A DNA stretch of 42,244 bases, from positions 1 to 42,244 of the forward strand of contig CALMIR010000029.1 in assembly GCA_937864265.1 (NCBI GenBank), written 5' to 3'. Below, piece by piece: positions 4,152 through 39,237 of the stretch. The notes below the pieces were generated by a model, which was not told where the DNA came from, made no database searches, and worked only from the letters and a program-made list of their open reading frames with translations. Source of the stretch: an uncultured Saprospirales bacterium. GTDB lineage: Bacteria; Bacteroidota; Bacteroidia; Chitinophagales; Saprospiraceae. The translations under genes were made by a program, and so were the position numbers. Each line of letters opens with the position of its first letter. Position 1 is the stretch's first letter.

Positions 4152-4385
4152 CAGAAAAATTAAGTTCCCGATTTGTCCTTACCCTAGCGGGCTAAACGGT
4201 TCATTTTAAGTGTGTCTGCTAGGGTAAGGACTTTGATAAATTGGGAAGTAATTTTTTGCACACTACTAATCAGAAAAATTAAGTTCCCGATTTTGTCCTT
4301 ACCCTAGCGGGCTAAACGGTTCATTTTAAGTGTGTTCGCTAGGGTAAGGACTTTGATAAATTGGGAAGTAATTTTTTGCACACTA
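4152..4385. repeat. Tandem direct repeat of 2 x ~115 bp at 119-bp period, each copy containing a 14-bp perfect inverted repeat
   Basis: Copy A is 4152..4265 and copy B is 4271..4385. They are near-identical, differing by a 1-nt indel and a CT/TC swap. Each copy has the stem gtccttaccctagc / gctagggtaaggac (e.g. 4175-4188 with 4218-4231) around a ~29-nt loop. The pair lies between a + gene end (4043) and a + gene start (4471). Confidence 0.8.
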
Positions 4386-4470: not shown

Positions 4471-5697
4471 ATGCTAAAAACCAGAAAGCTGTTAGACGCC
4501 GTGAGGGATCACCTCCCCGATAAGCGATACACTATTATCACAGGTGCTCGCCAAGTTGGAAAAACTTCTTTGCTGCGCCTCCTTTTTCAAGAACTGAAGC
4601 TGCAAAAAGTACCCGTTTTTTTGCTTTCCTTCGAAGACAGTCGTGTATTGGAAGCCATCAATGAGCATCCTGATCGCATCTTTCAATTTCTCCCAATGCT
4701 GCCCCTACCCATTCTTGATGGCATTGCCCCGGAAAGAATGTACTTAATGATTGATGAAATCCAATATGCTAAAGACCCGACCAACTGCTTGAAATTCCTT
4801 TTTGATAAATACGAAGATAACCTAAAAATAATAGCTACAGGTAGCAGCGCTTTTTATATCGACAGAAAGTTTAAAGATTCGCTGGCGGGAAGAAAACGGG
4901 TTTTCAACCTGCTTCCACTGTCATTTGACGAATTTATCGCATTCAAAGATGCCCAGCAAGTATTAGAAGAGCTGGTGTTATTGCGTTTGCGCAAGGATTA
5001 CCAATCAACGCAGCAGGTTTTTCTAAAAAATTTGTTCTACGAATACCTGAGCTATGGGGGCTATCCTGCCGTGGTATTGGAAAAAAACGATCAGGAAAAA
5101 AAATACCTGCTGGAAGAACTGAAAAATGCCTACGTCAAAAGGGATATCCTGGAATCGAGTGTGGCTATGGAACACAAATTTTACCTGCTGTTTCAAATTT
5201 TGGCCGATCAAATTGGCAACCTGGTAAATAAACACGAATTGGCCAAAATCATTCAAGTGGACGACAAAACAATCGATCATTATCTGTACGTCCTCGAAAA
5301 ATGCTATCACCTCCATTTGATCAAGCCTTTTTTTCGCAATGTGCAAAAGGAATTGACCAAAATGCCTAAAGTTTATTTCAATGATTTGGGATTGAGAAAC
5401 GCTTTATTAAACCGATATGGAGATGTAAATAATCGCTCAGACAAAGGTGCCCTTTTGGAAAATTACTACTTTTCTCAATTCAGGCATCAGTGCCATCTGG
5501 ATCAGATTCATTTCTGGCGCACGGCTGACGGGCAAGAAATTGATTTAATTTTGGAAGAAAGTTTTGAAACAGGAAATGCATATGAAGTAAAATGGAATAA
5601 AGAAAAATTCCATCCTGCCAAATACGACAAATTCCTTTCTGCCTACCAGGGCTTCACTTTAGCCTGCCTCGATGAGGAAGCATTTTGGAAGATATGA
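4471..5697 (+). CDS. AAA+ ATPase of the DUF4143 family (COG1373-like ATP-binding protein)
   Basis: Walker A TGARQVGKTSLL near the N-terminus and Walker B-like LMIDEIQY. Length (~400 aa) and C-terminal region are typical of DUF4143 ATPases. Confidence 0.75.
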   Translation: MLKTRKLLDAVRDHLPDKRYTIITGARQVGKTSLLRLLFQELKLQKVPVFLLSFEDSRVLEAINEHPDRIFQFLPMLPLPILDGIAPERMYLMIDEIQYAKDPTNCLKFLFDKYEDNLKIIATGSSAFYIDRKFKDSLAGRKRVFNLLPLSFDEFIAFKDAQQVLEELVLLRLRKDYQSTQQVFLKNLFYEYLSYGGYPAVVLEKNDQEKKYLLEELKNAYVKRDILESSVAMEHKFYLLFQILADQIGNLVNKHELAKIIQVDDKTIDHYLYVLEKCYHLHLIKPFFRNVQKELTKMPKVYFNDLGLRNALLNRYGDVNNRSDKGALLENYYFSQFRHQCHLDQIHFWRTADGQEIDLILEESFETGNAYEVKWNKEKFHPAKYDKFLSAYQGFTLACLDEEAFWKI

Positions 5698-6008
5698 AAT
5701 CCATACTAGTCGAACATTTCTATTTTTTTGCCGAATAAAATGGTAAATTTATCCGCAGCAACCGCATAATTGCAACATCACCCGAATGAAACAGTTACTT
5801 GAAAAGGACACAAAGAACAAATCGTTAAACCATTGATCCTTTGTAACCTACCTTCCGCACACTTAGTGAAAAGTAGTGTTGTTTTCTCGTAACATTTTCC
5901 AAATCAACGCGATTAATGATTGCCCCACACATTGTGTGGAAAATCAAAGCCGATTGTTACCGCTTGTTCATGCTGAGCAAGCAGGATCAAATGCAATATC
6001 ATCCTAAA

Positions 6009-6650
6009 ATGACTGAACTCCTTCAAGCCGCCCTCGAACCTGTTAACCTCTTCTACACGACCTTACTGGCTATGGTTTTGCTGTACTGGCTTTCTGTAAT
6101 GCTCGGTGCGCTGGACATCAGTGCACTGGATTTTGATCTGGACACAGCCGATGCCGACGTAGATGCCGACCTGCATGGAGGGGGAAGTTGGTTGGCTGGG
6201 GTGCTCCATTTCTTTAATTTTGGTCGCTTGCCCTTTATGGTCGTTATGAGCGTTGTCGTATTGGCCGCCTGGTGTCTGGCCATCTTAGGCAATTACTACA
6301 TCGGGCAACATACCTGGGGCTTCGCTTTGGCTACCTTTTTGCCCATCATTTTCGCAAGCTTGGTGTTGGCCAAGCTCATCACCGCGCCACTCGTCCCGCT
6401 GTTTGCCCACTTGGACGGCACGGTTCAGGAAGTGGACTATATCGGCCAAGTATGCCAAATCCGCCTACCCGCCAATGCGGAAAAATTCGGCCAGGCCGAA
6501 GTACAGATCGACGGCGACTGGTTGCTCATCCATGTAAAGACCGAAACCCAGGAAATGGCATTGCGCAGCGGCGAACAAGCCCTAGTCGTAGGCAAAACGC
6601 CTGATGGTCGGTACTACCTCGTGCGCCGATTGGAGGATGACAAGGACTGA
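6009..6650 (+). CDS. NfeD/YqiJ-like inner membrane protein (flotillin partner, OB-fold C-terminus)
   Basis: ORF 5916..6650. The Met at 6009 gives an N-terminus typical of YqiJ-type proteins (MTELLQAALEPVNLFYTTLLAMVLLYW, then the acidic DFDLDTADADVDAD stretch). Several TM helices follow, then a C-terminal beta-rich segment (AEVQIDGDWLLIHVKTE..ALVVGKTPDGRYYLV) resembling the NfeD OB-fold. Sits 71 bp upstream of a flotillin gene. GC-rich. Confidence 0.6.
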   Translation: MTELLQAALEPVNLFYTTLLAMVLLYWLSVMLGALDISALDFDLDTADADVDADLHGGGSWLAGVLHFFNFGRLPFMVVMSVVVLAAWCLAILGNYYIGQHTWGFALATFLPIIFASLVLAKLITAPLVPLFAHLDGTVQEVDYIGQVCQIRLPANAEKFGQAEVQIDGDWLLIHVKTETQEMALRSGEQALVVGKTPDGRYYLVRRLEDDKD

Positions 6651-6721
6651 TAAGCTGGGCAGCAGCCCCCCATCAGCCACTAATTTTTGCCAATAAAATT
6701 TTAACCCTAAATAGTACTTTC

Positions 6722-8809
6722 ATGAACTTTTTCCTAGTTATTGAACCCCTGTTTATCGCCGTAGCCATCGGTTTGATGGTCGTTGTATTGGGCATCTTTT
6801 TTGCCATAGCAAGTTGGTATAAAAAAGTGCCTCAGGGCAAGGCCATTATTGCCACCGGATTTCGGGGCACCCGCGTTGCCTTTGAAAATGGCTTGATGGT
6901 CATCCCCGTTTTCGAAATGCACGAGCAAATGGATTTGTCCGTAAAAACGGTCGAGATCAGCCGAATGAAAGAAGATGGTTTGATTTGCAAAGACAACATC
7001 CGCGCCGACATCAAAGTCGTTTTCTTTGTGCGCATCAACAAAGACGCCACCGACATCAAGAAAGTGGCCCAGTCCATCGGCTGTCAGCGCGCTTCCGATT
7101 ACGAAACCCTGCGCGAACTCTTTGAAGCCAAATTCTCCGAGGCCATCAAAACCGTGGGCAAACGCTTCGACTTTGTCGAGCTATACGACAACCGCGAAAA
7201 GTTCAACGCCGAAATCCAAAACACCATTGGCGAATACCTCAACGGCTACAAACTGGATGATGTGGCCATCGACTACCTGGAGCAAACCGACCTGAGTTAC
7301 CTAAAGGAAAACAACATCCTCGACGCGGAAGGTATCAAGAAAATCGCCGAACTGACCGCAGCCCAAAAGGTAAAAGCCAACTTCATCCGCCGGGAAGAAG
7401 AAAAAACCATCAAAGAACAAAACGTTGAGGCCCGCGAAGCCATCCTCGAATACGAACGCCAATTGGCCGAAAAGGAAGAGCGACAGCGCCGTGAAATAGC
7501 CAACGTCAAAGCCCGCGAAGAGGCTGAAATAGCCAAAATTCGCGAAGAGGAGCGCCTGCGTGCCGAAATGGTACGTATCCGCACCGAAGAAGAACTGGCC
7601 ATCGCCGAAGAAAACAAAATGCGCCAGGTGATCGTGGCCGCCAAAAATAAAGAACGCACCGAAGCCGTAGAAAACGAGCGCGTGGAAAAAGACCGCATGC
7701 TGGAGCAAACCGAGCGCGAAAAGATCGTTTCGCTGGCCGAAATCGAGAAACAACGCGCCATCGAACAGGAAAAGAAAACCATCCAAGATGTGATCCGCGA
7801 CCGCATCATGGTGGAGAAAAAAGTGGTCGAAGAAGAAGAAAAAATCAAAGACACCCGCGTGTTGGCAGAAGCAGAGCGCTCCAGACAAAAGACCGTCATC
7901 GAGTCCACCGCTTTGGGTGAAGCCGGTATTATTGAAAAACAAAAAGCCGCTGAAGGCCAAAAACTGGCTGCTGAAATCTACGCCCAAACTATGCTGGTAG
8001 AAGCTGAAGCCAAAAAGAATGCCTCCGAGAAAGAAGCCGAAGCCCGTAAAATCATAGCCGAAGCCCGCGCCAAAGAAGAAGCTACCATCGGTATGTCAGA
8101 AGCACAGGTAACAGAAGCCAAAGCCAAAGCCCGCGAACTGGAAGGCAACGTAGAGGCCAATGTGCTGGAGAAAAAATCGCTGGCCGAGGCCCGCAGCATC
8201 GAAGCCAAAACCGAAGCCCTGCGCAAACAAGGCCTGATGGAAGCCCAGGTATTGGAAGAAAAAGGCGGCAAAGAAGCCAAAGTATTGGAAGAAAAGCTGA
8301 TTGCCGAAGCCCGTGGTGTGGAACAAAAGGCCAAAGCCATGAAACAACTCGACGGCGTGGGCAAGGATCACGAAGAGTTCAAACTCCGACTGGAAAAAGA
8401 GAAAGCCATCGAAATGGCCTCCATCAACGTGCAGAAAGATGTTGCTCAAGCTCAGGCTACCGTGCTCGCCGAAGCCCTGAAAAATGCCAAAATTGACATC
8501 ATAGGCGGTGAAATGCAGTTTGTCAACTCCATCCTCAACGCTGTAAACCGGGGCAAAACCCTGGATCAACTGGTGGACAACAGCCGCCACTTGGGTGATG
8601 TCAAAACGGCGCTGTTGGGCAATGGTCAAAACCATGGCAATGATGGTTTCTTGTCCAGAATAACCCAACTGGCTACCAAAGCCGGCCTTTCTGCCGATGA
8701 CCTTAAAAATCTTTCCCTCGCCGCCCTGCTGACCCGCGTTAGCAAATTTGCCAGCAAGCAGGAACGCGCCCTTTTCCAACAATTATTGGGAACGGAAGGC
8801 GAGCAGTAA
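6722..8809 (+). CDS. Flotillin-family (SPFH/band-7) protein with long Glu/Ala/Lys-rich coiled-coil
   Basis: N-terminal TM helix followed by the SPFH start (YKKVPQGKAIIATGFRGTRVAFENGLMVIPVFE). About 350 aa of EA/EK-rich coiled-coil typical of bacterial flotillins (YqiK/FloT-like). GC-rich. Confidence 0.85.
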   Translation: MNFFLVIEPLFIAVAIGLMVVVLGIFFAIASWYKKVPQGKAIIATGFRGTRVAFENGLMVIPVFEMHEQMDLSVKTVEISRMKEDGLICKDNIRADIKVVFFVRINKDATDIKKVAQSIGCQRASDYETLRELFEAKFSEAIKTVGKRFDFVELYDNREKFNAEIQNTIGEYLNGYKLDDVAIDYLEQTDLSYLKENNILDAEGIKKIAELTAAQKVKANFIRREEEKTIKEQNVEAREAILEYERQLAEKEERQRREIANVKAREEAEIAKIREEERLRAEMVRIRTEEELAIAEENKMRQVIVAAKNKERTEAVENERVEKDRMLEQTEREKIVSLAEIEKQRAIEQEKKTIQDVIRDRIMVEKKVVEEEEKIKDTRVLAEAERSRQKTVIESTALGEAGIIEKQKAAEGQKLAAEIYAQTMLVEAEAKKNASEKEAEARKIIAEARAKEEATIGMSEAQVTEAKAKARELEGNVEANVLEKKSLAEARSIEAKTEALRKQGLMEAQVLEEKGGKEAKVLEEKLIAEARGVEQKAKAMKQLDGVGKDHEEFKLRLEKEKAIEMASINVQKDVAQAQATVLAEALKNAKIDIIGGEMQFVNSILNAVNRGKTLDQLVDNSRHLGDVKTALLGNGQNHGNDGFLSRITQLATKAGLSADDLKNLSLAALLTRVSKFASKQERALFQQLLGTEGEQ

Positions 8810-8816
8810 GGGTAAG

Positions 8817-8915
8817 TAGTTTCTGGTTTCAAGTTTCTGGTTTCTGGTTTCAAGTTTCAGGTTTCAGGTTTCTGGAACTAGAAACTTGAAACCAGAAACC
8901 TGAAACCAAAAAAAA
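8817..8915. repeat. Heptamer repeat array (GTTTCWR x8) followed by four inverted heptamers (hairpin-forming) and an A8 run
   Basis: Forward units: gtttctg gtttcaa gtttctg gtttctg gtttcaa gtttcag gtttcag gtttctg. Then aactagaaac ttgaaac cagaaac ctgaaac c, then aaaaaaaa. Occupies nearly the whole 111-bp gap between flotillin and the giant gene. Confidence 0.75.
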
Positions 8916-8920
8916 GTTCT

Positions 8921-11900
8921 ATGCAAAACCCCAGCCTTGACGGTGGTACCTACGAAATCATTCGCAATCGCCTGCACCAACAGGCCGCATCACTGAGCGA
9001 GCGCCTGACCCGACTCAACCAGGAGCGGAAGGCTGTTTTCGGTGCCATCGAAACCAAGCTCATCGCTGCCGATCGCATCAAAACGGGCAATTACTGTCTG
9101 GCTCGCGATATTGTGGCCATTGGCAACCGCTGCCTTTTTGGTTACAACGTTCACATCGGGCTGCGTTCTGGTATTCAGCTCAGCGACGTGTTCAGCATCT
9201 ATGAATTCCGGGAGCAGCGCTTTCAGGAAAGCACGCTGGATATGCTGTCGAATGAGCAATTCCAGATCGATTTTCAAAACCTGTACCGCTACTACAAAGA
9301 AGCCTACTTCGCCCGTTTTTCCATCCGCGATGCCTATTTGTACATGGTATTTCGCCTAAAACCCGGCGGCGAAGACATCAAAACCTTTAAATGGCTCATC
9401 GCCGATGCCGGCCTGCAATACATCGACAACCGCTCCGACCATGAAGTGCGCTTCCCCAACCAATACGAATTCCAGTGGCGGCGGGCTTCCCGCGACCACC
9501 ACCGGATGGGTAAACACCCCCACGTATCGGTACTGGATCGGGTGTTTGTGGAAACGGTAGGCGGCGACCTGACCATTAAGGTAGAAGACAATACCGATGA
9601 CGGACGCGGCATCTACCGAGAAAGTGTCGAGCACCGCGATCAAACCCTGGACGATGCCGAATACCAATACGCCGATTTGGGCAACCTCATCGCACTGAAG
9701 ATCAAACCCTATCAGGAGGCCGAGCGCTATTTTATTTTTAATGAAAAATTGCAGGAAGTCAGGCGGGTGGACAGCCTGGCCGATTCCGGCGTTTTGTTGC
9801 CCGACGGGCACGGACTTATTTTTGCCAATGGCTATTACCTCCAAACTGGCGAATACAAAATATTTGAAACCGATGTAAAAGGCAAGCGTTTCAAAAAGCG
9901 CATCAGTTCTCCGAATGGGGAGGATTACCTCTACGCTTTTTACGACGACAACGACGGCGTTTTTGTGCTGTTGCACTACAACCTCATTTCCCAAAGCGTA
10001 CAAACGCCTATCATTTGCAATGGCTTTACCCTTTTTCCGAAAGGGGAGCTTTGTTATTTCAAAAGGGAAGCGGAGCCGACCAAGCATCACGCCATGCAGA
10101 TATGGCAAACTCCTTTTCTGACGGGCGAATCCTTGCCCTCGGAGCATTCTGATTCCTATCTGTACAAGGTGGGAAACAAAGACATCGTCCGAGCGATGGC
10201 CGAATGCCAGGAGATCATTACCCTGGCCAATAAAGAAGACAATTACGCCAATTTGTACGACGATCTGGTGCGCCGCTGTACCGATGCCATTGATGGGTAT
10301 TATTGGATCGCCCAAGCGGAGGCTTTTCGATTGGATGAACCCCTGCGGCAGTTGCGCGAAACAGCCAATGCAGCCATAGATGAATTTGCCAAAAAACGGC
10401 GCATCGAACGCGAATCAAAAGCCGCACTGACCCAAACCCGGGAAAAGGCCGAAGCGCTATTTGACAAAATCAAACGTCAGTCTTTCGACAGCATCGACTT
10501 GTTGGTGCACGCCTTGGGCGATTTGCGCCTGCTGCGCGGCGAAATCATCGGCCTAAAAGCGCTTCAATATACCGATGAAAAGCTCATTGCCGAACTGGAA
10601 ACAAAAGCGGAGGAGTTTTCGAGCCGCTTGTCGGAAGATAGCGTGCGTTTTTTGCTGGAACCAGAAGCGCTGGCGCCCTACACCCAACGCATAGATGCCC
10701 TGGAAGCCCAATTGCCAGAAGCGCGGACAGTGGTACAGGGAAACGGACTGGAGCAGGCGCTGGATGAAACCGGCAAAGAATTGGAATTGCTGATTGAAGT
10801 GGTCAGCAACCTGAAAATAGAAGACGCCACCCAGACCACCGTCATCATTGACCGCATATCCGACTTGTATGGGCGACTCAACCAGGTTCGCACAGCCCTG
10901 CGCCGACAGATACAAGATTTGCGCCGGGTGGAATCGGCGGCAGAATTCAGCGCCCAACTCAAATTGCTGGATCAGAGCATCATCAACTTCCTGAGCTTGT
11001 CTGATACGCCTGCCCGCTGCGACGAATACCTGACCAAGCTGATGGTGCAACTGGAGGAATTGGAGGGGAAATTTGCCGAGGTCAATGAGTTCATTACGCA
11101 GGTAGCCGAAAAGCGGGAAGCCATTTTTACCGCCTTTGAAGCCCGCAAAAACGAACTGGTCGAAGCCCGGAACAACCGGACTACCGCCCTGCAACAGGCT
11201 GCCGACCGCATTCTGGAAGGCATGCAGCGCCGCGTGAGCAATTTCAAAGAGGTCAATGAAATCAATAGCTTTTTTGCTGCCGACCTGCTCATTGACAAGG
11301 TGCGCGACATCGTGCGCCGCTTGGAGGAGCTAGAGGATACCACCAAAGCCGGGCAGATACAAGCCCGCATGAAAGCTTTGCAGGAAGAGGCCATCCGCCA
11401 ATTGCGGGACAAAAAGGAACTGTTTGAAGCAGGCAGCAACTTGATTCGCCTGGGGCGCCACCGCTTTGCAGTAAACGTGCAAGCCCTGGAGCTGACCACC
11501 GTTCGCAAAGGCGACGAACTGCAGTTGCACCTGACGGGTACGCAGTTTTATCAAACCATTTCAGATACAGCCTTGCTGAGTGCGAAACCTTTTTGGGATC
11601 AGGTGTTGGTTTCGGAAAATGCGCAGGTTTATCGGGCAGAATATCTGGCTTACGATTTTTTTTACAATTCGGGTAAAGAGACCCTGCCAAGTGATCAAAA
11701 AGCCCTTCAGGAACTGGTAACCCGCCATGCCGTGACCCGCTATCGGGAAGGTTACACGAAGGGGGTTCACGATGAAGATGCTGCCCGCATCATCAGCGGT
11801 TTGCAAGAAATGGCCGCTGGTATTGGGATGTTGCATTTTGCCCCTCCAATACGGGCTATGGCGCGCCTGTGGTGGTCGGCATTTTGCGAAAGCGGACAAC

Positions 11901-13774
11901 GACAACTCCTCCAACAGCAATTGAGCAGTGCCGGCATTATGCTGCGTATTTTTCCTAAAACCACGGAGTTTGAGTATTTGGTCGATGAGTTGGCGCAAGG
12001 ACTTCGGGATTTTGCCGATTACTCAGGGCTTTTCCCCGCAGCTTGGGCCGCCAAATCCGCTGTTTATTTATTTCAGGAAATGAGCGCTGGATCGTTGTTT
12101 TCCATCAGTCAGGAAGCGGTACAGCTCAGCGCTTCTTTTGAAAAAAACCTGAAAGCCAAAAAGGCACAAACCCTTTTCAAAGATTCTGTGGCTGCGCTGG
12201 ACGATCAGCCCCTGGCCCGCTATCGCCTCATCAGGCGCTGGGTGCAAGCTTTCCTGGAGGAAATTGGCTTGGAAAAAGAAGCTTTCCTGGATGAAACAGC
12301 CTGCCGCATGGCACTCGACAAGCCAGCAGAAGAACAGGTGGTTTCTGCCATTACCCGGAAGACCATTGATGGGATGCGGGGTGAGCACCCTGTCATTAAA
12401 GACGGCATTTACGTGCTGGATTACCACCAGTTTAGCGATAAGCTGAGCCATTACCGGCAGCATATTCAACCGGGCTTTCTGGCCTATCAGGATGCCAAGC
12501 GCAGTCTGGCGGAGCAACACCGCAAAGCCCTGCACTTGGAAGAATTCCGGCCCAAGGTACTGACTTCTTTTGTGCGCAATCGCCTGATTGATCAGGTATA
12601 TCTGCCGCTTTTTGGCGACAACCTGGCTAAGCAAATTGGCACGGCAGGCGAAGCTACCCGGACGGATCGGATGGGCTTGTTGCTCTTGCTCTCTCCGCCG
12701 GGCTATGGCAAAACCACCCTGATGGAGTATGTGGCCAGCCAATTGGGCTTGGTATTTGTGAAAGTCAATGGCCCGGCTTTGGGGCATCGAACGCACTCGC
12801 TGGCGCCGGAAGATGCGCCCACCTTGGCGGCCCGCCGCGAGTTGGAACGCCTCAACCTGGCCTTGGAAATGGGCGATAATGTGATGCTGTACGTGGATGA
12901 CATTCAGCACTGCGATGCCGAGTTTTTGCAAAAATTCATCTCGCTTTGCGATGGACAGCGCAAGATTGAAGGCGTTTTCAATGGAGAGGCGCGCACCTAC
13001 GACCTGCGTGGCCGCCGCTTTTGTGTGGTGATGGCCGGCAACCCTTATACGGAGAGCGGCACCCGCTTCCAGATACCGGATATGTTGGCCAACCGAGCGG
13101 ATGTGTATAACCTAGGCGATATCATCGGCGGTCAGGCGGATGTATTCCAACTCAGCTATATCGAGAATGCCCTTACGGCAAATGGGGTATTGCGCCAATT
13201 GGCCAATCGCAGTATGAAGGATGTGTATGCCTTGCTGCGCGTGGTCGAGTCGGGCAATCGGGAGGGATTGAATTTGGAAGGGAACCACGCCCCGGAAGAT
13301 ATGGCGGCTTACCAATCGGTGCTGGCCAAGTTCTTGCGCGTACGCGATGTGATTCTAAAAGTGAATAAGGCCTATATCCAATCGGCGGCTATGGAAGATG
13401 ATTACCGCAGCGAACCGGCTTTCAAACTACAAGGCTCTTACCGCGATATGAACAAACTGGCCGAGCGCATCGAGCCGATCTTGAACGATTCGGAATTGGA
13501 AACCCTCCTGCTGGGGCATTACGAAAATGAAGCGCAAACGCTGACGGGACATGCGGAAGCCAATTTGCTCAAGCTGAAAGAACTGCTGGGAACGCTCTCC
13601 CATGAAGAAGCCACCCGCTGGGCCGACATCAAACGCACTTTCCAAAAGAATAAGATGCTGCGCGGCACAAATGGAGAAAATCCGGTGGCTCAGGTCGTCG
13701 CTCAACTGGATCAGTTCAATGAGGGCTTGTCGAAAATCCGGGAGGCGATTGAGGGCAGCAGGAAAGGAGGCTGA
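8921..13774 (+). CDS. Giant (1617 aa) multidomain protein with coiled-coil middle region and C-terminal Lon/HCLR-clade-like AAA+ ATPase module
   Basis: Uninterrupted 4.85-kb GC-rich ORF. Walker A LLLLSPPGYGKTTLMEY and Walker B MLYVDDIQH. The ATPase segment's overall spacing resembles the Lon AAA+ module. The N-terminal ~1200 aa were not recognised. Residues ~440-800 are heptad-rich and coiled-coil-like. Confidence 0.8.
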   Translation: MQNPSLDGGTYEIIRNRLHQQAASLSERLTRLNQERKAVFGAIETKLIAADRIKTGNYCLARDIVAIGNRCLFGYNVHIGLRSGIQLSDVFSIYEFREQRFQESTLDMLSNEQFQIDFQNLYRYYKEAYFARFSIRDAYLYMVFRLKPGGEDIKTFKWLIADAGLQYIDNRSDHEVRFPNQYEFQWRRASRDHHRMGKHPHVSVLDRVFVETVGGDLTIKVEDNTDDGRGIYRESVEHRDQTLDDAEYQYADLGNLIALKIKPYQEAERYFIFNEKLQEVRRVDSLADSGVLLPDGHGLIFANGYYLQTGEYKIFETDVKGKRFKKRISSPNGEDYLYAFYDDNDGVFVLLHYNLISQSVQTPIICNGFTLFPKGELCYFKREAEPTKHHAMQIWQTPFLTGESLPSEHSDSYLYKVGNKDIVRAMAECQEIITLANKEDNYANLYDDLVRRCTDAIDGYYWIAQAEAFRLDEPLRQLRETANAAIDEFAKKRRIERESKAALTQTREKAEALFDKIKRQSFDSIDLLVHALGDLRLLRGEIIGLKALQYTDEKLIAELETKAEEFSSRLSEDSVRFLLEPEALAPYTQRIDALEAQLPEARTVVQGNGLEQALDETGKELELLIEVVSNLKIEDATQTTVIIDRISDLYGRLNQVRTALRRQIQDLRRVESAAEFSAQLKLLDQSIINFLSLSDTPARCDEYLTKLMVQLEELEGKFAEVNEFITQVAEKREAIFTAFEARKNELVEARNNRTTALQQAADRILEGMQRRVSNFKEVNEINSFFAADLLIDKVRDIVRRLEELEDTTKAGQIQARMKALQEEAIRQLRDKKELFEAGSNLIRLGRHRFAVNVQALELTTVRKGDELQLHLTGTQFYQTISDTALLSAKPFWDQVLVSENAQVYRAEYLAYDFFYNSGKETLPSDQKALQELVTRHAVTRYREGYTKGVHDEDAARIISGLQEMAAGIGMLHFAPPIRAMARLWWSAFCESGQRQLLQQQLSSAGIMLRIFPKTTEFEYLVDELAQGLRDFADYSGLFPAAWAAKSAVYLFQEMSAGSLFSISQEAVQLSASFEKNLKAKKAQTLFKDSVAALDDQPLARYRLIRRWVQAFLEEIGLEKEAFLDETACRMALDKPAEEQVVSAITRKTIDGMRGEHPVIKDGIYVLDYHQFSDKLSHYRQHIQPGFLAYQDAKRSLAEQHRKALHLEEFRPKVLTSFVRNRLIDQVYLPLFGDNLAKQIGTAGEATRTDRMGLLLLLSPPGYGKTTLMEYVASQLGLVFVKVNGPALGHRTHSLAPEDAPTLAARRELERLNLALEMGDNVMLYVDDIQHCDAEFLQKFISLCDGQRKIEGVFNGEARTYDLRGRRFCVVMAGNPYTESGTRFQIPDMLANRADVYNLGDIIGGQADVFQLSYIENALTANGVLRQLANRSMKDVYALLRVVESGNREGLNLEGNHAPEDMAAYQSVLAKFLRVRDVILKVNKAYIQSAAMEDDYRSEPAFKLQGSYRDMNKLAERIEPILNDSELETLLLGHYENEAQTLTGHAEANLLKLKELLGTLSHEEATRWADIKRTFQKNKMLRGTNGENPVAQVVAQLDQFNEGLSKIREAIEGSRKGG

Positions 13775-13837
13775 GTAGTTTTTGCATTTTTTTGTAACGG
13801 AAGTGGCTGGATAGTTACACTTAAAACCCTTTTTGCG

Positions 13838-13866
13838 TTGAAAGTATTATTTTTTTGCAAAAAAGT
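13838..13866. promoter_or_regulatory. Near-perfect AT-rich palindrome (tattatttttttgc / gcaaaaaagtaata) immediately upstream of the 13890 gene; candidate operator
   Basis: Inverted repeat seen directly, with one mismatch. A TAnnTTTG-type box (tacctttg, ~13877-13884) lies between it and the ATG. Confidence 0.3.
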
Positions 13867-13889
13867 AATAAAATTGATACCTTTGTGTC

Positions 13890-14258
13890 ATGAAATGGTA
13901 TGAAAATCTACCGCTTGATTGCCCACCCCAAGAAGCAAGTACCCCAAATGGTGCTTACTTTCGTTTAGGAAGTATTCCGCCCGATGAAAGCGACTTTTGG
14001 TCGCACAGACGGCGGTTTCCACATAAAAAATTTCACGTCGACGAATGCATCGCACGATCATTATCCATTTTTGATGCTCAAGATTCGGCTGAACGACTGA
14101 AACAGTTGTTGCCTGCTATGCGATCAAAGCCTGTTTTTCAGTTAGATTTGTTTGAAAAAGACGGTTTAGTCCAACGGACAGGTAACGATTTGCATCATTT
14201 TTCATGGTGGCGAAGTACAGATTTTGACTTAGCAACCATTAAAATTTTAGAACTATGA
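13890..14258 (+). CDS. Hypothetical 122-aa protein (first gene of inserted two-gene cassette; possible toxin-like partner)
   Basis: ORF with intermediate GC. Its stop overlaps the next start by 4 bp (ATGA). Contains an Rx5H string (RTGNDLHH) reminiscent of, but not diagnostic for, a HEPN motif. No recognisable family. Confidence 0.5.
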   Translation: MKWYENLPLDCPPQEASTPNGAYFRLGSIPPDESDFWSHRRRFPHKKFHVDECIARSLSIFDAQDSAERLKQLLPAMRSKPVFQLDLFEKDGLVQRTGNDLHHFSWWRSTDFDLATIKILEL

Positions 14259-14773
14259 ATTTCTCGCTTAGCATTCAGGAAACCCTAATTTGGCACGATT
14301 ACCCGCAGTTGTTCGTGGCAAAAGACAAAATCGGAGGTCTCCAATTGTGTCTTGCCATTGACGATACACCTCAATACCTGTCAGTGGCTATATCAAGTAC
14401 CCGATTGCAAGATTTGAAATTGGGTAAAATTGACCTCCATAGCGTTTTTGCCACACCCGAACTCGGAGTATGGTTTCGGGTAAAACTAACCGACACCGAT
14501 GAAATTATAGCCGAAATCATACCTTCTACAGAATCTATTCCCCCTGAATGGTTGCCTGTACCCAATGTATTTTTGCCCTACACCCCGCTTTTGCGCCCCG
14601 AAACCTTTGAAGTGGTAAAAGTCGGAGCAGTCGCCAAAGAGGCGGGGATGAACCCAACCTTGTTGCGCCAATATTTATCAGGCGTTAAACAACCTTCGCG
14701 CGAGCAGGCTTTGCGCGTACAAGATGCCCTGCACCGTGTAGCGAAAAGGTTGTTGGAGGTGCAGTTTGTTTGA
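14255..14773 (+). CDS. Hypothetical 172-aa protein with C-terminal XRE-like helix-turn-helix
   Basis: The C-terminal VAKEAGMNPTLLRQYLSGVKQPSREQALRVQDALHRVAKRL fits the XRE-family HTH pattern. Translationally coupled to the upstream gene. Confidence 0.55.
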   Translation: MNFSLSIQETLIWHDYPQLFVAKDKIGGLQLCLAIDDTPQYLSVAISSTRLQDLKLGKIDLHSVFATPELGVWFRVKLTDTDEIIAEIIPSTESIPPEWLPVPNVFLPYTPLLRPETFEVVKVGAVAKEAGMNPTLLRQYLSGVKQPSREQALRVQDALHRVAKRLLEVQFV

Positions 14774-14846
14774 TTTTCTCTTCCCACTGGATTTCGGCTT
14801 CGACGGGCGATAGCATCTGCAGGCAGGTGGATGTATTCCAACTCAG

Positions 14847-15047
14847 TTGTATGAACTATTGGGAAGGCTCTCCCATGAAGAAGCCGCCCGCTGGGCCGAC
14901 ATCAAACGCACCTTCCAAAAGAATGAGATGCTGCGCGGCACAAATGGAGAAAATCCGGTGGCTCAGGTCGTCGCTCAACTGGATCAGTTCAATGAGGGCT
15001 TGTCGAAAATCCGGGAGGCGATTGAGGGCAGCAGGAAAGGAGGCTGA
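14847..15047 (+). pseudogene. Decayed duplicate of the 3' end of the giant AAA+ gene (encodes its last ~62 aa nearly verbatim; TTG start only)
   Basis: The translation ELLGRLSHEEAARWADIKRTFQKNEMLRGTNGENPVAQVVAQLDQFNEGLSKIREAIEGSRKGG differs at three positions from the C-terminus of 8921..13774. An 18-mer 14829-14846 (ggatgtattccaactcag) matches 13140-13157 of the giant gene, so ~430 bp appear deleted in between. There is no ATG start. Confidence 0.65.
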
Positions 15048-15091
15048 GTAGTTTTTGCATTTTTTTGTAACGGAAGTGGCTGGATAGTTAC
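14864..15091. repeat. Direct repeat copy 2 of giant-gene 3' end plus 44 bp of downstream sequence (copy 1 about 13598..13818)
   Basis: ~225 bp near-identical to 13598..13818. The shared downstream sequence tgagtagtttttgcatttttttgtaacggaagtggctggatagttac follows both stop codons. The copies diverge immediately after gatagttac. Confidence 0.8.
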
Positions 15092-15936: not shown

Positions 15937-16162
15937 GTTGACAGTTTAGTGGTGAAATTACGAAATCAAGAGATAATGAGGTAGCAGCCTTTATTTTCTC
16001 ATGGTACTTGTCTGTGCAATTTGATATACACCCAAATCAAGTCCCGTAGGGATGCTGCGTGTTATACAATTTCCTCCAAAAATCTTACACCGCCCATTAT
16101 TTTTGATTACCTTTTGCCCCGAAAAACGCCCCTTGGCGTCGATTCTGTAAAAGCAACGTATT

Positions 16163-17869
16163 ATGCAGCTAAAAGAACCCGGGCAGGTATATGATGCCGT
16201 CATAGTAGGCTCCGGCGCAGGTGGAGGTATGACCGCCAAAATCCTGGCCGACAAAGGCTGGCGCATAGCCGTCATTGAAGCAGGCCCCTATTTTGATCCA
16301 GCCGACCCGGCTACCAAAACACAGATGCGCTGGCCCTGGGAAAGCCCCCGCCGCGGCGCTGGAACGGTGCGCCCTTTTGGCGATTTTGACATGGCCTACG
16401 GTGGCTGGGACATTGAGGGAGAACCCTACACCAATGCGGAAGGCTCCGATTTTCGCTGGTTCCGTTCCCGCATGCTCGGCGGGCGTACCAACCACTGGGG
16501 GCGCATATCGCTGCGTTTTGGTCCCAATGATTTCCATCGCAAAGACATAGACGGCCTAGGTGCCAATTGGCCCATCAGCTACGAGGACGTCAAGCCGTAT
16601 TACGACAAGGTGGACAAACTCATCGGCGTTTTCGGCACCAATGAAGGGCTACCCAATGACCCCGACGGTTTCTTCCTGCCGCCACCAAAACCGAGACTAC
16701 ACGAGTGGTATTACATCAAAGGTGCCAAAAAAAGCGGTGTTACGGTGATCCCCAGCCGCTTGTCCATCCTCACCAAAAAGCTGCATCCCGACCGCGGGGT
16801 TTGCTTCTATTGCCGCCAATGTGCCCGTTCTTGTATGGCATATGCCGACTTTAGTTCCGGCAGTTGCCTCATTTTTCCTGCACAAAAATCTGGCGGCCAA
16901 ATTGACCTTTTCGTGGAATGCATGGCCCGCGAAGTAGTCACGGACAGCAGCGGCAAGGCTACGGCGGTGAGCTATGTCAATAAAAAAGACCGCCGCGAAT
17001 ACCAGCTCAAAGGCAAAGTCATCATACTGGCAGCCTCTGCCTGCGAAACTTCCCGCATCCTGCTCAATTCCAAGAGCAGCATCCACCCCAACGGATTGGG
17101 CAATGGCAGCGGCGTAGTGGGGCACTACCTGCACGATAGCACGGGCAGCAGCATGAGCGGTTTTATTCCTGCCCTCATGGATCGCGACATCTATAATGAA
17201 GACGGTGTGGGCGGCCTGCATGTGTATTCGCCGTGGTGGGGAAACAACAAAAAACTCGATTTTCCACGGGGCTACCACATCGAAGTATGGGGCGGCATGG
17301 ATATGCCGGGTTATGGTTTCGGATGGGATCATGCTGTCGTTCAGCGCGCTATGGGCATGCGGCCCGGAGGCTATGGCAGTAGCCTAAAAGACGAGGTCAA
17401 GCGCTTCTATGGCGCATACGTAGGCATGTCAGGCAGGGGTGAAGCGGTGGCTCGCTACGAAAACTATTGCGAGATTGATCCTTTGAAAGTGGACGAATGG
17501 GGCATCCCTGTGCTGCGTTTCAACTACAAATGGTCGGATTATGAGAAGAGGCAGGCCCGCCACATGCAGCATACATTCGAGGAAATCCTCACCAACATGG
17601 GAGCCACCATCCTCAGCGAAAAAGGCACGGCTGCCAATGATTACGGCCTCAACAAGCCCGGTGAAATCATTCACGAGGTAGGTACAGCCCGCATGGGTAG
17701 CGACCCCCGCGACTCGGCTACCAATGCCTTCGGCAAGCTCCACGAGGTGCCCAACGTCTATATCACCGATGCGGCCACCTTCCCCAGCCAAGCCGACAAA
17801 AACCCCACCTGGACCATCATGGCGCTGGCCTGGCGAACGGCCGATCACCTTATTGCGGAATACAAATAA
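16163..17869 (+). CDS. GMC-family FAD-dependent oxidoreductase (gluconate 2-dehydrogenase flavoprotein-like)
   Basis: N-terminal Rossmann motif VIVGSGAGGGMTAKILADKGWRIAVIEAG and C-terminal GMC signatures (GTARMG, DAATFPS). GC-rich. Confidence 0.85.
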   Translation: MQLKEPGQVYDAVIVGSGAGGGMTAKILADKGWRIAVIEAGPYFDPADPATKTQMRWPWESPRRGAGTVRPFGDFDMAYGGWDIEGEPYTNAEGSDFRWFRSRMLGGRTNHWGRISLRFGPNDFHRKDIDGLGANWPISYEDVKPYYDKVDKLIGVFGTNEGLPNDPDGFFLPPPKPRLHEWYYIKGAKKSGVTVIPSRLSILTKKLHPDRGVCFYCRQCARSCMAYADFSSGSCLIFPAQKSGGQIDLFVECMAREVVTDSSGKATAVSYVNKKDRREYQLKGKVIILAASACETSRILLNSKSSIHPNGLGNGSGVVGHYLHDSTGSSMSGFIPALMDRDIYNEDGVGGLHVYSPWWGNNKKLDFPRGYHIEVWGGMDMPGYGFGWDHAVVQRAMGMRPGGYGSSLKDEVKRFYGAYVGMSGRGEAVARYENYCEIDPLKVDEWGIPVLRFNYKWSDYEKRQARHMQHTFEEILTNMGATILSEKGTAANDYGLNKPGEIIHEVGTARMGSDPRDSATNAFGKLHEVPNVYITDAATFPSQADKNPTWTIMALAWRTADHLIAEYK

Positions 17870-17880
17870 AGCAAGTACCC

Positions 17881-18606
17881 ATGGATAGACGCGAATCGTT
17901 AAAAAACCTCTTGGCAGGTGCTGCAATAACCAGCGCCCTGTTTACCCAATTGTCTTGTGAGCGTGCTCCCGACCATGAAGAAAGTGCCGCTGCTTCGCCG
18001 TCCGATTTCCCCTTCGAGGGTACGCGCACGCAAGAAGAGCAAAGGCGCGATGCCCGCATGCATGCCACCGATTTTTTTCTGGAATCGGAAAAACAAACCC
18101 TCACCACCTTATCTGACTTGATTTTGCCGGAAGATGGCAAAGGTCCGGCGGCCTCAAAAACGGGTGTGGTGGATTTCATAGAATTCATGGCGCTGGACTT
18201 TCCCGACTTCCAAGTGCCGCTGCGTGCGGGGCTGGCTTGGCTCAGTGCCGAATCGTTGGAGCGTTTTGAAAACAATGATTTTTCTGCCCTCCAGCCTGCC
18301 CAACAAAAACAACTGCTGGACGAGATTGCGTACCTGCCCGATGACCCTATGGAGGAGCTCACGGCGCCGGTTGCGTTTTTTGATCTGGTACGCGGGTTGG
18401 TACTCACCGGCTATTTTACCAGTAAGGAAGGTGTCGCTGATTTGGGCTACAAAGGCAATATGGCCAATATCTGGGACGGCGTTCCTCAGGAAGTCCTCGC
18501 CAAGCACGACATCGAGTACGACCCTGCCTGGGAAGCCAAGTGCATCAACCAAGACACCCGTGAAACCTTGGCGGAGTGGGACGAAAATGGAAAACTGCTG
18601 AATTGA
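17881..18606 (+). CDS. Gluconate 2-dehydrogenase subunit 3-family protein (Tat-signal small subunit partner of the GMC oxidoreductase)
   Basis: Twin-arginine-like N-terminus (MDRRESLKNLLAGAAITSAL). Lies 12 bp after the GMC gene. Size and position are typical of the small subunit in these pairs. Confidence 0.6.
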   Translation: MDRRESLKNLLAGAAITSALFTQLSCERAPDHEESAAASPSDFPFEGTRTQEEQRRDARMHATDFFLESEKQTLTTLSDLILPEDGKGPAASKTGVVDFIEFMALDFPDFQVPLRAGLAWLSAESLERFENNDFSALQPAQQKQLLDEIAYLPDDPMEELTAPVAFFDLVRGLVLTGYFTSKEGVADLGYKGNMANIWDGVPQEVLAKHDIEYDPAWEAKCINQDTRETLAEWDENGKLLN

Positions 18607-20071: not shown

Positions 20072-20335
20072 TTTATTTTTCAACCATCCGTTTTTTCTGT
20101 CCAAAGCATTTGCTGTGTTTTCTAAAGTTTTCAAGTCTGAAAATTTCACCCCCATAGTTGTCGGCTTACTTCGGGCTATTTCTGTCGTGTGGAACCTATT
20201 TTTAGGTTCTATTGTCCATTACAAATTTACAATTTTTTCCTTATGATTCCTCGGATTGCTGTCGTTGTAGAGTGGGGTAGGGCGGGTGCGCTAACGCAGC
20301 CGGCCTTAGTCGGTTGACGGTGGTGCGGTGTATAT

Positions 20336-20602
20336 GCCTCGAATGAGCATCGAAGATGCTCCCTTCGAGCTGTATTTAAGCTGACGCGCTTAAAGATAGC
20401 AAGTCAACGTCTTTCCAAAGGGAAAGTGCTCTGGGGAGGTGAAAGGCCTCCTCACCGTCACCGAAGCGCGGTTGCGCAAGCGGGGTTTTTGGAATACTAC
20501 CTCCCCGTTAAGTCCCGCGACGCACAGCCACCACCCATGCCAGCACGTTCACCAAGAAACGATAAGTTGTTCTTTGAACCGCGAAGTACGTGATCCGTAC
20601 GC
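20336..20602. repeat. 267-bp direct repeat, copy 1 (perfectly identical to 38902..39168); GC-rich, hairpin-dense, non-coding
   Basis: Identity was read directly, from cctcgaatgagcatcgaagatgctcc through gtgatccgtacgct. Nested hairpins: ctcgaa-[gagcatc gaa gatgctc]-ttcgag; tatttaagc/gcttaaagata; ctttcc aaa ggaaag; ggagg tgaaagg cctcc; and a 14-bp bulged stem cgaagtacg..cgtacGCttcg at the 3' end. The flanks are similar but diverged. Confidence 0.85.
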
Positions 20603-20672
20603 TTCGTGGTGGGAGCGGGATAAGAGCAGCTGACTGGCTGGTTTTAGGCTACTTGCTTAGCGGTTTTTCTAC

Positions 20673-21404
20673 TCAAATGCTATCTAATAGTTCAATTTCA
20701 GGCATTTCGTCCCATGTCTTGCCTTCCAATAATCGCCCTGTTTTCTTTTTATTTGTCCCACCCCATTGTTTGAAAAAGAAGGCTACGTTAGCATCTAAAC
20801 ATTGATTTTTTATATCTGTTACCCATTCTTCTTTCATAGGCCTAGGTTTTCGTCCACTTTCTCCACCAACTATTACCCAATCAATTCCTTTTAAGTTCAT
20901 ATTCGGTATCGCTCCAATCAACGGCTCACAAGAAAGGAACTTAACCCTTGCTCCGGTCTCACGAAGCAGGTCAATTCTCTTAGTTACTTTATTATTTTCG
21001 ACTGAAACCCCCATCCAAATATTGTGTGCCCACTCTAACCAACCTTCGCTGTCATAAAATCTTAATACGTCTGCCCTTTTGGTCAGAACCTGAAAAACGT
21101 GTTGTGGATTGTCCTTCATTACTTTAAATACTTTTCTTATAAAGTCGATAGGCACGTCTTTATGAAACAAGTCACTCATTGAGTTTACAAAAACAACCTT
21201 CGGTTTTTTCCATGAATAAGGTGTTCTTAACTCGTCTTCGTGGATGGTAATGTCAAAGTTGTTTTTATATTTTTCAACTCCCATTGCTTGCAAACGCTTT
21301 GACATAATCTCGGCATAGCAGAATTTACAACCAGCCGATATTTTATCGCAACCCGTAGTTGGATTCCAAGTCATTTCTGTCCATTCTATGCTTGAATGTG
21401 CCAT
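20673..21404 (-). CDS. Phage Gp37/Gp68-family protein (DUF5131; three-Cys, radical-SAM-like)
   Basis: The N-terminal [32 protein letters not shown] Cys cluster and the overall ~240-aa layout match the Gp37/Gp68 family. Sits 11 bp downstream of its partner gene. Confidence 0.7.
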
Positions 21405-21415
21405 ATTTTGTTCAT

Positions 21416-22531
21416 TTATTTGAAAGTGATAATGATGTCATCCCCCAAAGTTCCCTTTTTAGGCGGTTTACCTTTAGGAGAAATTGCGTCAATTGAATTT
21501 TCCTCATATAATTCCTTTAACACGTCTTTGTAATTTTTCTTAATGTAAGGGGTATCAACATTATGAAGTCTATAAATATCTTTCATTCTCACTGTTTCCC
21601 CGCGATAACGATGTATTAAATTTTCTTTTAAATCATCAAGTGGCCTAGAAAGTTGAAATAACAGTGTTTGCTTTGGAAGTGAATCTGCGGGGTTATACTC
21701 AAAAGAGGGTACTCCTTGCTCGTTACTACTACTTTCCTTTGCCATAATATCCTTCATTATTTCATAACCAAGGAAGTTTTTACTTACAAAGATTAGATGA
21801 TGGCTCGTTCTTTCACCGCTGTCATTTTTAAACCTAAATGGAAGAACGAAATTGGCTCCCAATTCTTTCAATGCTTGGCATAGTTCCTCAATAATTAACA
21901 TTTCTCTTTGCATAGGGTTCGCGTTCGACAACTTTAACCTTAACCGATAACATCTCTCCTTTCCAAACAATGAATTCATGTGAGAAGTGACCATTTTATT
22001 ATTTAACCCCATATTTATTCGATTGTAGTTGAAGAAAAAAATCGCATCACATCTCCAGTCCTTCAAAACTGAATTTACAAGCCTCAAAGATAAACCCTTA
22101 TAACCCCAAGGGTCAACAAAAAATAGAGTGGGAATCAAGTTCATCTGCTCAAATTGTGTGACTATATTTTCCCCTACTTCTTCATTCCATACATCGGGAT
22201 AATATACCAATTCGTTGATATTGGGTATTTCTGATATGGCTCCAGACAATGATTTCGAGTTTTCGGTATCCTTATCATTAAAAATAGTTACAAGCCTTTC
22301 TTTTAAGTCTGGATTGGAGAGGGCATAGTTAAGGATTTTTAAGGGGGTAGATTGGGCACCATCTCGGTATCTACCTGGCCCAGCGAAAAGATCAATATAG
22401 GCTATTTTTTGCGCATATTGAGGGTGTTTTTTTTGCGTATTTATTATTACATTAGCCCAAACGCTAAAATATTTGGCCACAATAGTGGATTTAACCAATG
22501 ACTGCTCCCTTTGTTCGTTAAAAAATGACAT
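21416..22531 (-). CDS. tcmP: Three-Cys-motif partner protein TcmP-like (partner of DUF5131)
   Basis: The N-terminal region ([17 protein letters not shown]...[11 protein letters not shown]) matches the conserved TcmP start. Its adjacency and co-orientation with a DUF5131 gene is the defining context of this family. Confidence 0.6.
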
Positions 22532-24270: not shown

Positions 24271-24432
24271 GATATTTCCATAACTCGTTTATTTATTCGT
24301 ATTAAGTTTGATTTAATTTTTCTTCTTAAGTGCTGCTGTTTACTGAGTTTGCCCTTGTGATTGTGATTTAACCATCATAGGTAGAGCTGGGGCTGATGAA
24401 GAGCGCCCCATATTATTTAAAATCGCAAAATC

Positions 24433-24467
24433 GATGTTCAATTCACCTGCCAATATGTTCAATTGAC
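24433..24467 (+). promoter_or_regulatory. Candidate LytTR-type operator: direct repeats ATGTTCAATTCAC / ATGTTCAATTGAC phased 21 bp apart (copy 1 of a 35-bp element)
   Basis: The 35-mer gatgttcaattcacctgccaatatgttcaattgac is identical to 26674..26708. It lies in the divergent region between the arsC-like gene (minus) and the M43 protease gene (plus), ~77 bp upstream of the latter. Confidence 0.35.
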
Positions 24468-26652: not shown

Positions 26653-26673
26653 GCATTTCAAAATTGCAGAACG

Positions 26674-26708
26674 GATGTTCAATTCACCTGCCAATATGTT
26701 CAATTGAC
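26674..26708 (+). promoter_or_regulatory. Candidate LytTR-type operator, copy 2 of the 35-bp phased direct-repeat element
   Basis: Identical 35-mer to 24433..24467, ~73 bp upstream of the DUF2147 gene start (26781), in the same orientation. Confidence 0.35.
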
Positions 26709-38713: not shown

Positions 38714-38901
38714 GAATGATTTGAGCAATCTAGCTATAAATAGAACTATTAACCATATCGAGCTAATTAAATTTTGACAAAAAGCTTTATGGGTGTAGCA
38801 TTTATATTGATCGCCCTTGCACCCGCAGGGTTTCAGCCGACGTGTTGGCTACACGCAGGTGGCGCGTTTAGTGACACTTGCCGTTGTAGCCGTTGTGTGT
38901 A

Positions 38902-39168: not shown

Positions 39169-39237
39169 GGGTGGTGTGAGAGGGCTGCGGTGGGGCATCT
39201 TGGCTCACCGTTCCCTACTCGATTGGCAGCAGTCTTT

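Follow-up and report, generated by a model that had tools for sequence, protein, structure and literature searches.

What is the perfect repeat that occurs twice, 18.5 kb apart, in the window (the whole 42,244-nucleotide stretch analysed here, from an uncultured Saprospirales bacterium)? The initial annotation had described a 267-bp, densely structured, non-coding element, which it proposed to be a novel ncRNA or a structured mobile RNA or DNA element. The repeat is real: 267 nt are identical (100%) between positions 20337–20603 (copy A, which had been placed one base too low, at 20336–20602) and 38902–39168 (copy B). The gapless match between the copies widens to 294 nt at 97% identity (20326–20619 and 38891–39184), all 8 mismatches being confined to the outermost 11 + 16 nt. 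ENA contig ERZ794931 NODE_520 is the counterpart of the window, and a megahit assembly of another sample (ERZ27240677) was used for comparison. Contigs of this assembly (L002 and L003) break off at both copies, in each case exactly 141 nt (= k) into the core, and one of its contigs covers exactly the inter-repeat segment. Because the core breaks the contigs of an independent assembly at both copies, the repeat is not an artefact of a single assembly.

Each copy is surrounded by a GC-rich island of ~400 nt, in DNA of ~39% GC. Both had been noted to lie within ~70 bp of the 3′ ends of minus-strand genes, which is accurate: the distance from the end of the core to the stop codon is exactly 70 nt in both cases. 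The gene beside copy A (20673–21404, minus strand) encodes a DUF5131 protein, and that beside copy B (39238–40425, minus strand) encodes an uncharacterised protein of 395 aa. Neighbouring proteins match Portibacter lacus (Saprospiraceae) at 72% and Bacteroidota metagenome-assembled genomes at 71–77%. The DUF5131 (phage Gp37/Gp68-like) gene is followed by a gene for a 371-aa GMT-like wHTH protein, and the two form a conserved-looking pair (20673–22531) whose function has no assignment.

The repeat was not recognized by general searches. Rfam returned no match across the whole window at gathering thresholds, nor in copies A and B at E ≤ 10, and a tRNA/tmRNA scan of the window found none. By blastn, no plasmid or phage matched the repeat; a 24-mer from the middle of the core was absent from 185,579 species genomes, three patterns from the element were absent from viral contigs, and a search of JGI metagenomes with a 25-mer of the 5′ hairpin was likewise blank. 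The longest open frame across the repeat has no homologue among 5.8 billion proteins, and 49 loci around homologues of the RND pump (71–77% amino acid identity) contained no copy of the element. No transposase, integrase or reverse transcriptase (RT) gene was found within the 42-kb window (tblastn for RT). Folding of the whole element is modestly better than that of shuffled sequences, with z = −2.2 on the plus strand and −2.0 on the minus strand.

The 3′ hairpin links the element to group II introns. A 23-mer from this hairpin, CGCGAAGTACGTGATCCGTACGC, matches nine metagenome contigs (L059–L067). All nine share a common block that consists of ...GTGAAC, the 23-mer hairpin, a second hairpin and ...CCTACTCGATT, beyond which the sequences diverge; because the 3′ flanks are all different, the nine contigs represent nine separate insertion sites. 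In L062, the block is found directly downstream of a 435-aa open reading frame (ORF) that carries RVT_1 (1e-36) and GIIM (4e-17) domains and is itself preceded by a match to RF02001, group-II-D1D4-3, of 99 bits. The 435-aa protein contains RVT_1 and GIIM only and has no endonuclease domain, which is a IIC trait, seen here in the relative and not in the window. The same intron occurs in L065 with a truncated ORF, the protein of which also carries RVT_1 and GIIM. The RF02001 region of the JGI introns holds an 11-nt bulge, CGAACAGGAAC, that contains the AGGAA ε′ motif (GAACAGGAA, at nt 190 in L062 and L066), and AGGAA within an 11-nt ε′ bulge is specific to IIC introns (Toor et al. 2006, PMC1702495). 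Both AGGAA and GAACAGGAA are absent from the two window copies. Given that the JGI relatives have the ε′ AGGAA and the window copies do not, the lineage is IIC and this part has been lost in the window. Consistent with this loss, RF02001 gives no match at E ≤ 10 in copy A or B; the JGI relatives score 98–101 bits.

The JGI lineage has also produced a shortened form. L066 contains, at 855–1273, a 419-nt ORF-less version of the L062-type intron, which is 1959 nt long in L062 and ~330 nt in the window copies. Its deletion junction (GGACGGATTCA|CTTAAAAG) recurs in L063 at another genomic site, the L063 contig ending 51 nt upstream of the 23-mer. These two contigs thus represent a second, independent internal-deletion derivative, in the JGI intron lineage. 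As a separate observation, JGI contigs bear second, unrelated group II introns near the IIC copies, at L065:158–2645 (plus strand) and at L066:1–93 and 2431–2542 (minus strand); these match RF02012 (D1D4-7) and RF00029 and have a 575-aa ORF, and the regions are intron-dense.

The 3′ hairpin had been likened to domain V of a group II intron, and this proposal is borne out, since the same 23-mer stands directly after the RT/maturase ORF in L062. Domain V of group II introns is a hairpin of ~32–34 nt with a catalytic triad, the central G of which forms a G·U wobble, and with a 2-nt bulge on the 3′ strand. In copy A, domain V (20578–20610, plus strand) is intact, with 13/13 pairs: its basal stem of 10 bp holds the CGC triad and the G·U wobble, and beyond an AC bulge a distal stem of 3 bp carries the loop UGAUC. 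The CGC at 20581–20583 and the 3-bp distal stem are those of a IIC domain V, in which CGC replaces AGC and the distal stem is 2 bp shorter (PMC1702495; PMC4424553). The helix had previously been drawn with 14 bp and a GC bulge, which is an alternative pairing of the same bases; the IIC register places the bulge at AC and reveals the CGC triad and the G·U wobble. The last base of the helix had, in addition, been given as T instead of G, and the helix runs past the end of the annotated repeat to 20610. All 13 pairs are also kept in the JGI copies. In copy B (39143–39175, plus strand), a UC→GG change in the 3′ strand breaks two basal pairs beside the triad (column pairs 14–36 and 15–35, unpaired in one sequence of the alignment).

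Domain VI follows in both copies. In copy A (20613–20654, plus strand) it is an extended hairpin, the register of whose distal stem was set by hand, and A20651, which faces C across a 1×1 loop, stays unpaired 7 nt before the intron's 3′ terminus. A bulged branch-point A at 7–8 nt from the 3′ splice site is typical of group II introns. In copy B (39178–39220, plus strand) it is a 43-nt hairpin with a bulged A39217 seven nt from the 3′ end; the bulged A is followed by CUCGAU, and the intron ends in AU, as expected for a terminal AY. This hairpin is as long as the JGI domain VI, and its distal stem differs from the latter by compensatory changes. Window and JGI introns have 42 of 44 nt in common over domain V and the 5′ strand of domain VI. 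An alignment of domains V and VI with five distinct sequences has 89.9% of its cells paired, compared with at most 47.7% in controls with slid partners. Seven of the 17 domain VI pairs are changed on both sides, that is, in a compensatory manner. The first exon nucleotide after the intron is U in 11/11 copies.

That Rfam is silent about these domains carries no information. RF00029 (Intron_gpII, threshold 40 bits) gives no match at E ≤ 10 in window positions 20570–20660 or 39135–39225, but at the same E value it also misses domains V and VI of the RT-encoding L062 (L062:1940–2100). Because the model fails on a bona fide intron, its negative results are uninformative for domains V and VI of the window. 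The Rfam comparison that had been recommended for both copies returned no match, and a confident Rfam hit is not a workable criterion for this lineage.

Extending the copies to their termini gives a functional unit of ~330 nt, of which the 267 bp previously taken as the whole element are a part. Copy B spans 38895–39223 (plus strand, 329 nt), starts with GUGUGUA... and ends with ...CCCUACUCGAU, as delimited by comparison of filled and empty sites. Its 5′ end, GUGUG at 38895–38899, conforms to GUGYG and is in register with the GUGUGUG of L062, L065 and L066. Copy A, an ORF-less and internally deleted IIC intron on the plus strand, spans 20330–20657 (~328 nt, with ends placed to ±1–2 nt by in-register comparison with copy B and the JGI introns). 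Its termini are off consensus: the 5′ end reads GUAUAUG, or GUGUAUAUG if the start is set at 20328 (GUAUA in register, GUGUA two nt upstream), and the 3′ end reads ...GGCUACUUGCU, ending in CU. Over the first 25 nt, the window copies match the JGI introns at 18–19/25 positions; for copy B, 19/25 nt are identical between GUGUGUACCUCGAAUGAGCAUCGAA and the JGI 5′ end GUGUGUGCCCAGAAUGGGCACCUAA. The identical core (20337–20603 in copy A, the same 267 nt at 38902–39168 in copy B, both plus strand) extends from intron nt 8 to the third nt of the 3′ basal strand of domain V, and the first 7 nt of the intron differ between the copies.

The 5′ portion of the element is a remnant of domain I. In copy A it occupies 20330–20450 (plus strand) and, besides the conserved 25 nt of the 5′ end, contains three hairpins as well as the motif CUCUGGGGAGGUGAAAGGCCUCC. 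The short hairpins that had been listed upstream of the 3′ helix are present in the sequence, although the outer arms of the first are bulged (U; CC), and they belong to this 5′ part of domain I. The remnant can be locally aligned with the JGI introns in a collinear manner, and both have a GGGAGRUGAAAG..CUCC hairpin, in which one pair is compensatory. Beyond the first 25 nt and a single motif, homology in domain I is weak, the local alignment scoring 46 where the 95th percentile of the null is 44. The JGI relatives, in turn, presumably have a domain I that strongly resembles the O.i.I1 sequence.

Between the domain I remnant and domain V lies a trace of protein-coding sequence. Positions 20433–20518 of copy A (plus strand; GEVKGLLTVTEARLRKRG / FLEYYLPVKSR) and the same sequence at 38998–39083 of copy B (plus strand) encode a frameshifted RT/maturase C terminus. 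This remnant aligns to residues 400–431 of the 435-aa L062 protein with a score of 71, whereas shuffled sequences score 26 ± 4, with a maximum of 45 in 2000. It consists of two core frames joined across one frameshift and marks the 3′ side of an internal deletion. An earlier alignment of core nt ~150–200 to JGI domain I was replaced by this better-supported match to the maturase C terminus. Used as a protein query after correction of the frameshift, the remnant had no match. The ORFs across the repeat (55/64 aa in copy A and 83/113 aa in copy B) do exist, as had been reported, but they are not featureless, given that two frames hold this remnant. All that remains of an intron-encoded RT/maturase is therefore ~30 frameshifted C-terminal residues. 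Likewise, only ~243 nt precede domain V, ~85 nt of which are coding remnant, and a complete domain I, domains II and III and J2/3 are absent. The core is thus composed of ~120 nt of 5′ domain I, the last ~30 maturase codons with the sequence that follows them, and domain V.

The positions of the copies are also those of IIC introns, for which insertion a few nt after a stem-loop is a defining behaviour (PMC1702495, PMC4424553). A hairpin at 20251–20328 (plus strand) ends 1 nt before the intron of copy A; RNAfold of 20250–20329 gives −35.5 kcal/mol and z = −2.5, with a 1-nt 3′ tail. The hairpin upstream of copy B (38847–38891, plus strand; −27.4 kcal/mol) has a 3-nt tail, and in relatives it stands uninterrupted beside GGCAGCAGTC. 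All 5/5 known 5′ junctions lie 1–8 nt after a long hairpin (1–3 nt for copies A and B), with z from −1.7 to −2.5 in four of them, and the exons upstream of the introns end in (N)TT. Insertion after a terminator-like stem-loop, which in IIC introns goes with an IBS1 of 3–4 bp and no IBS2, is thus retained as a trait, and the EBS1/EBS3 region has been deleted from the window copies. Empty sites, in which hairpin-TT-GGCAGCAGTC carries no insert, were found in L054, L055/L056 and L070, and in L057 and L058 as far as these extend. In these relatives the neighbouring gene for the 395-aa protein is 83–88% identical and the hairpin has the form GGCTA...TAGCC. When the window exons are joined across copy B, they reproduce the hairpin-TT-GGCAGCAGTC arrangement of the relatives.

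Long, variable GGCTA...TAGCC hairpins form a family of their own, located right after stop codons in this Saprospiraceae-like lineage (L053:6397–6460, L054:5887–5954, L055:3861–3927 and 5602–5689, L070:1761–1860, window 38847–38891). They are REP- or terminator-like and serve as the intron target, and short-read contigs often end within them (L057, L058).

It is highly likely that both copies are protein-less, internally deleted class C (IIC) group II introns, probably dead relics. By sequence comparison, they are intron-derived, lack a complete ribozyme and belong to a known class of retroelement, not to a new class of RNA. The initial annotation was right to call the repeat non-coding, structured and derived from a mobile RNA element; its designation as a novel ncRNA is not supported, and the repeat is a deletion derivative of a known retroelement class.

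We compared the copies with three sets of known introns. With IIC introns, such as B.h.I1 (Bacillus halodurans) and O.i.I1 (Oceanobacillus iheyensis), they share the 5′ GUGUG (copy B); a domain V with CGC, a G·U wobble, a 2-nt bulge and a short distal stem (PMC1702495, PMC4424553); an unpaired A in domain VI 7 nt from the 3′ end; and insertion a few nt behind a stem-loop, where a very short (N)UU resembles IBS1. The protein of their RT-encoding relatives likewise lacks an endonuclease domain. However, IIC introns comprise a ribozyme of ~420 nt and an ORF of ~1.3 kb, whereas the window copies measure ~330 nt, have no ORF and are without the ε′ AGGAA bulge, distal domain I and domains II–III; they also have a 5-nt domain V loop (UGAUC), and domains V and VI of their lineage are missed by RF00029. 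Known ORF-less copies provide a second comparison. The three B.c.I7 copies on pE33L466 (Bacillus cereus E33L) are likewise near-identical, RT-less and present at several sites (PMC2504315), and in such copies, including cyanobacterial ones that are acted on in trans (PMC4424553), likewise only a few ORF bases remain. RT-encoding introns occur alongside them, as they do for the window lineage at least in the JGI community. In the B.c.I7 and cyanobacterial copies, by contrast, the deletion is within the domain IV loop and the ribozyme is intact, whereas the window copies have also lost most of domain I and all of domains II–III. The third set is formed by relics, such as RmInt1 fragments in Sinorhizobium, organellar introns and Euglena group III introns, which likewise degenerate and persist (PMC4496777, PMC4424553). 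Relics and degenerate introns retain domain VI and a reduced domain I, as the window copies do. Bacterial intron fragments, however, usually lose the 3′ terminus (PMC4496777), whereas the window copies keep both termini and lose the middle; a further difference from known fragments is that an identical core is common to two loci.

A plausible history begins with a full-length ancestor, with ribozyme and RT/maturase, that would have inserted by reverse splicing and reverse transcription, as is established for IIC introns. It would have landed a few nt after a DNA stem-loop, in this case the hairpin located past the stop codon of a convergent gene on the minus strand. Entry on the plus strand between stop codon and hairpin would explain why the copies lie ~70 bp from minus-strand 3′ ends, and they now lie antisense, separating two genes from their terminator hairpins. 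No full-length parent intron was found in the 42-kb window, to which the search was confined. An internal deletion of ~1.6 kb extends from ~nt 120 of domain I to the last ~30 maturase codons, and has removed distal domain I, domains II–III, nearly all of domain IV, the ε′ bulge and the protein. Exon-binding sites of IIC introns reside in distal domain I. Most likely, neither copy can splice or move by itself. Because the exon-binding region, the ε′ bulge, domains II–III and the protein are gone, and because the ends of copy A and domain V of copy B are damaged, the copies are likely to be dead relics.

One feature is in tension with this reading, in that decay alone does not explain a 100% identical core beside strongly diverged ends. 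The core seems to be sequence that was recently copied between the two loci. Identity begins at intron nt 8 and stops inside the 3′ strand of domain V, and the divergence of the whole of domain VI between copies A and B is comparable to that which separates the window from the JGI lineage, its fold being kept. Clean retrohoming copies the whole intron, and ordinary gene conversion requires flanking homology. Given the differences in the termini and in domain VI, clean retrohoming is the less likely route, and our best guess is copying anchored on the conserved 5′ end and domain V, whether by recombination, by gene conversion or by RT copy-choice.

The identical core also invites the reading that the copies belong to a living non-autonomous retroelement, a group II “SINE/MITE”, which would be transcribed, served in trans by the RT/maturase of a full-length intron and copied to hairpin sites. 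In its favour, two sites separated by 18.5 kb have a core of 100% identity, the JGI deletion derivative (L066/L063) occurs with one junction at two sites, near-identical ORF-less group II copies have been read as trans-mobilised (B.c.I7, PMC2504315; PMC4424553) and the fold of domain VI is maintained by compensatory changes. Two independent deletion derivatives, each at two or more sites, could mean that mini-forms are still mobile. However, reverse splicing requires the exon-binding sites, the ε′ AGGAA bulge, domains II–III and J2/3 (PMC1702495), all of which are deleted, and the usual maturase binding site in domain IV is lost. Moreover, the first 7 nt, the 3′ strand of domain V and domain VI differ between the copies, though retrohoming would copy the whole intron, and the splice sites of copy A are off consensus and domain V of copy B is broken. 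We consider such a living element quite improbable.

Far less credible is a new class of structured ncRNA, encoded by a free-standing gene that has two paralogous copies and its own promoter and terminator. The GC-rich islands within AT-rich spacers, σ70-like hexamers upstream of both copies with a T-run downstream, and the silence of Rfam would fit such a gene. Against this, both ends, domains V and VI and the coding remnant are homologous to RT-encoding group II introns, relatives have a precise empty site, the folding z is only about −2 and the promoter-like matches are at chance level. The least tenable explanation, which we regard as next to impossible, is an intron-unrelated DNA repeat (a MITE, an IS200/IS605-type palindromic element, att sites of an 18.5-kb island or an assembly artefact): the sharp boundaries, the terminal hairpins and the direct repeats flanking 18.5 kb suit it, but neither terminal inverted repeats nor target-site duplications are present, the hairpins at the two ends are dissimilar, the window has no integrase or transposase, a second assembly supports the repeat and intron homology accounts for both ends.

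Several more specific candidates had been considered and dropped. An IS200/IS605-type element or a TnpB/IscB guide RNA was set aside because the end hairpins are dissimilar and there is neither a fixed target tetranucleotide nor a nuclease gene; a TIR-type MITE, because inverted repeats and a target-site duplication are absent and the flanks differ; and attL/attR sites of an 18.5-kb island, because an integrase is lacking and the genes in between are ordinary. An integron attC or a REP cluster with an inserted core fell away once the “variable hairpins” had been recognised as the target stem-loop and, on the opposite side, domain VI. A helix that would pair the flanks and close the element reached significance in copy A only, and similarity between the flanks was significant only for the 16 nt right of the core, which are the 3′ strand of domain V and the 5′ strand of domain VI.

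The window contains further repeats apart from the intron copies. A 247-nt direct repeat of 96% identity (13572–13818 and 14845–15091) is a duplicated 3′ end of the gene for a 1617-aa DUF3686/AAA ATPase, located downstream of two small ORFs; these ORFs encode 122 aa and 172 aa (DUF6575). Two tandem units of ~120 nt with 91% identity lie at 4155–4385, upstream of an AAA_14/DUF4143 ATPase gene, and each holds an inverted repeat, GTCCTTACCCTAGC...GCTAGGGTAAGGAC. At 8820–8912, between the genes for a 695-aa Band_7 protein and the 1617-aa ATPase, there is a 41-nt inverted repeat of TTTCTGG/TTTCAAG units. A 52-nt repeat of 90% identity with two ATGTTCAATT motifs (24416–24467 and 26657–26708) precedes two plus-strand genes, for an M43 peptidase and a 116-aa ORF, and may be a shared operator or promoter element. 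Positions 5900–14800 and 16100–18600 have ~50–55% GC within DNA of ~36–42% GC, a compositional mosaic that suggests horizontally acquired blocks.

Reading the copies as decayed group IIC introns explains a puzzling, GC-rich, perfect repeat in a contig of Saprospiraceae-like Bacteroidota. It also exposes a blind spot in annotation: the Rfam model of domains V and VI does not see this IIC lineage, RT-encoding members included, and its ORF-less members are therefore invisible to Rfam-based annotation. That ORF-less introns with an unusual domain V could be overlooked has been pointed out (Zimmerly and Semper, PMC4424553). For the genome itself, the intron copies break short-read assemblies, and the 267-bp direct repeats could loop out 18.5 kb. 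The core from domain I to domain V is identical in the two window copies, and the domain VI modules joined to it are lineage-specific and structurally intact; this mosaic pattern raises the question of recombination among intron copies. We think it unlikely, albeit worth stating, that gutted mini-introns, without most of domain I and all of domains II–IV, still spread or exchange modules. If they do, group II-derived elements would propagate without a ribozyme in cis, for example through RT copy-choice or through recombination of cDNA, with the invariant domain V as the anchor.
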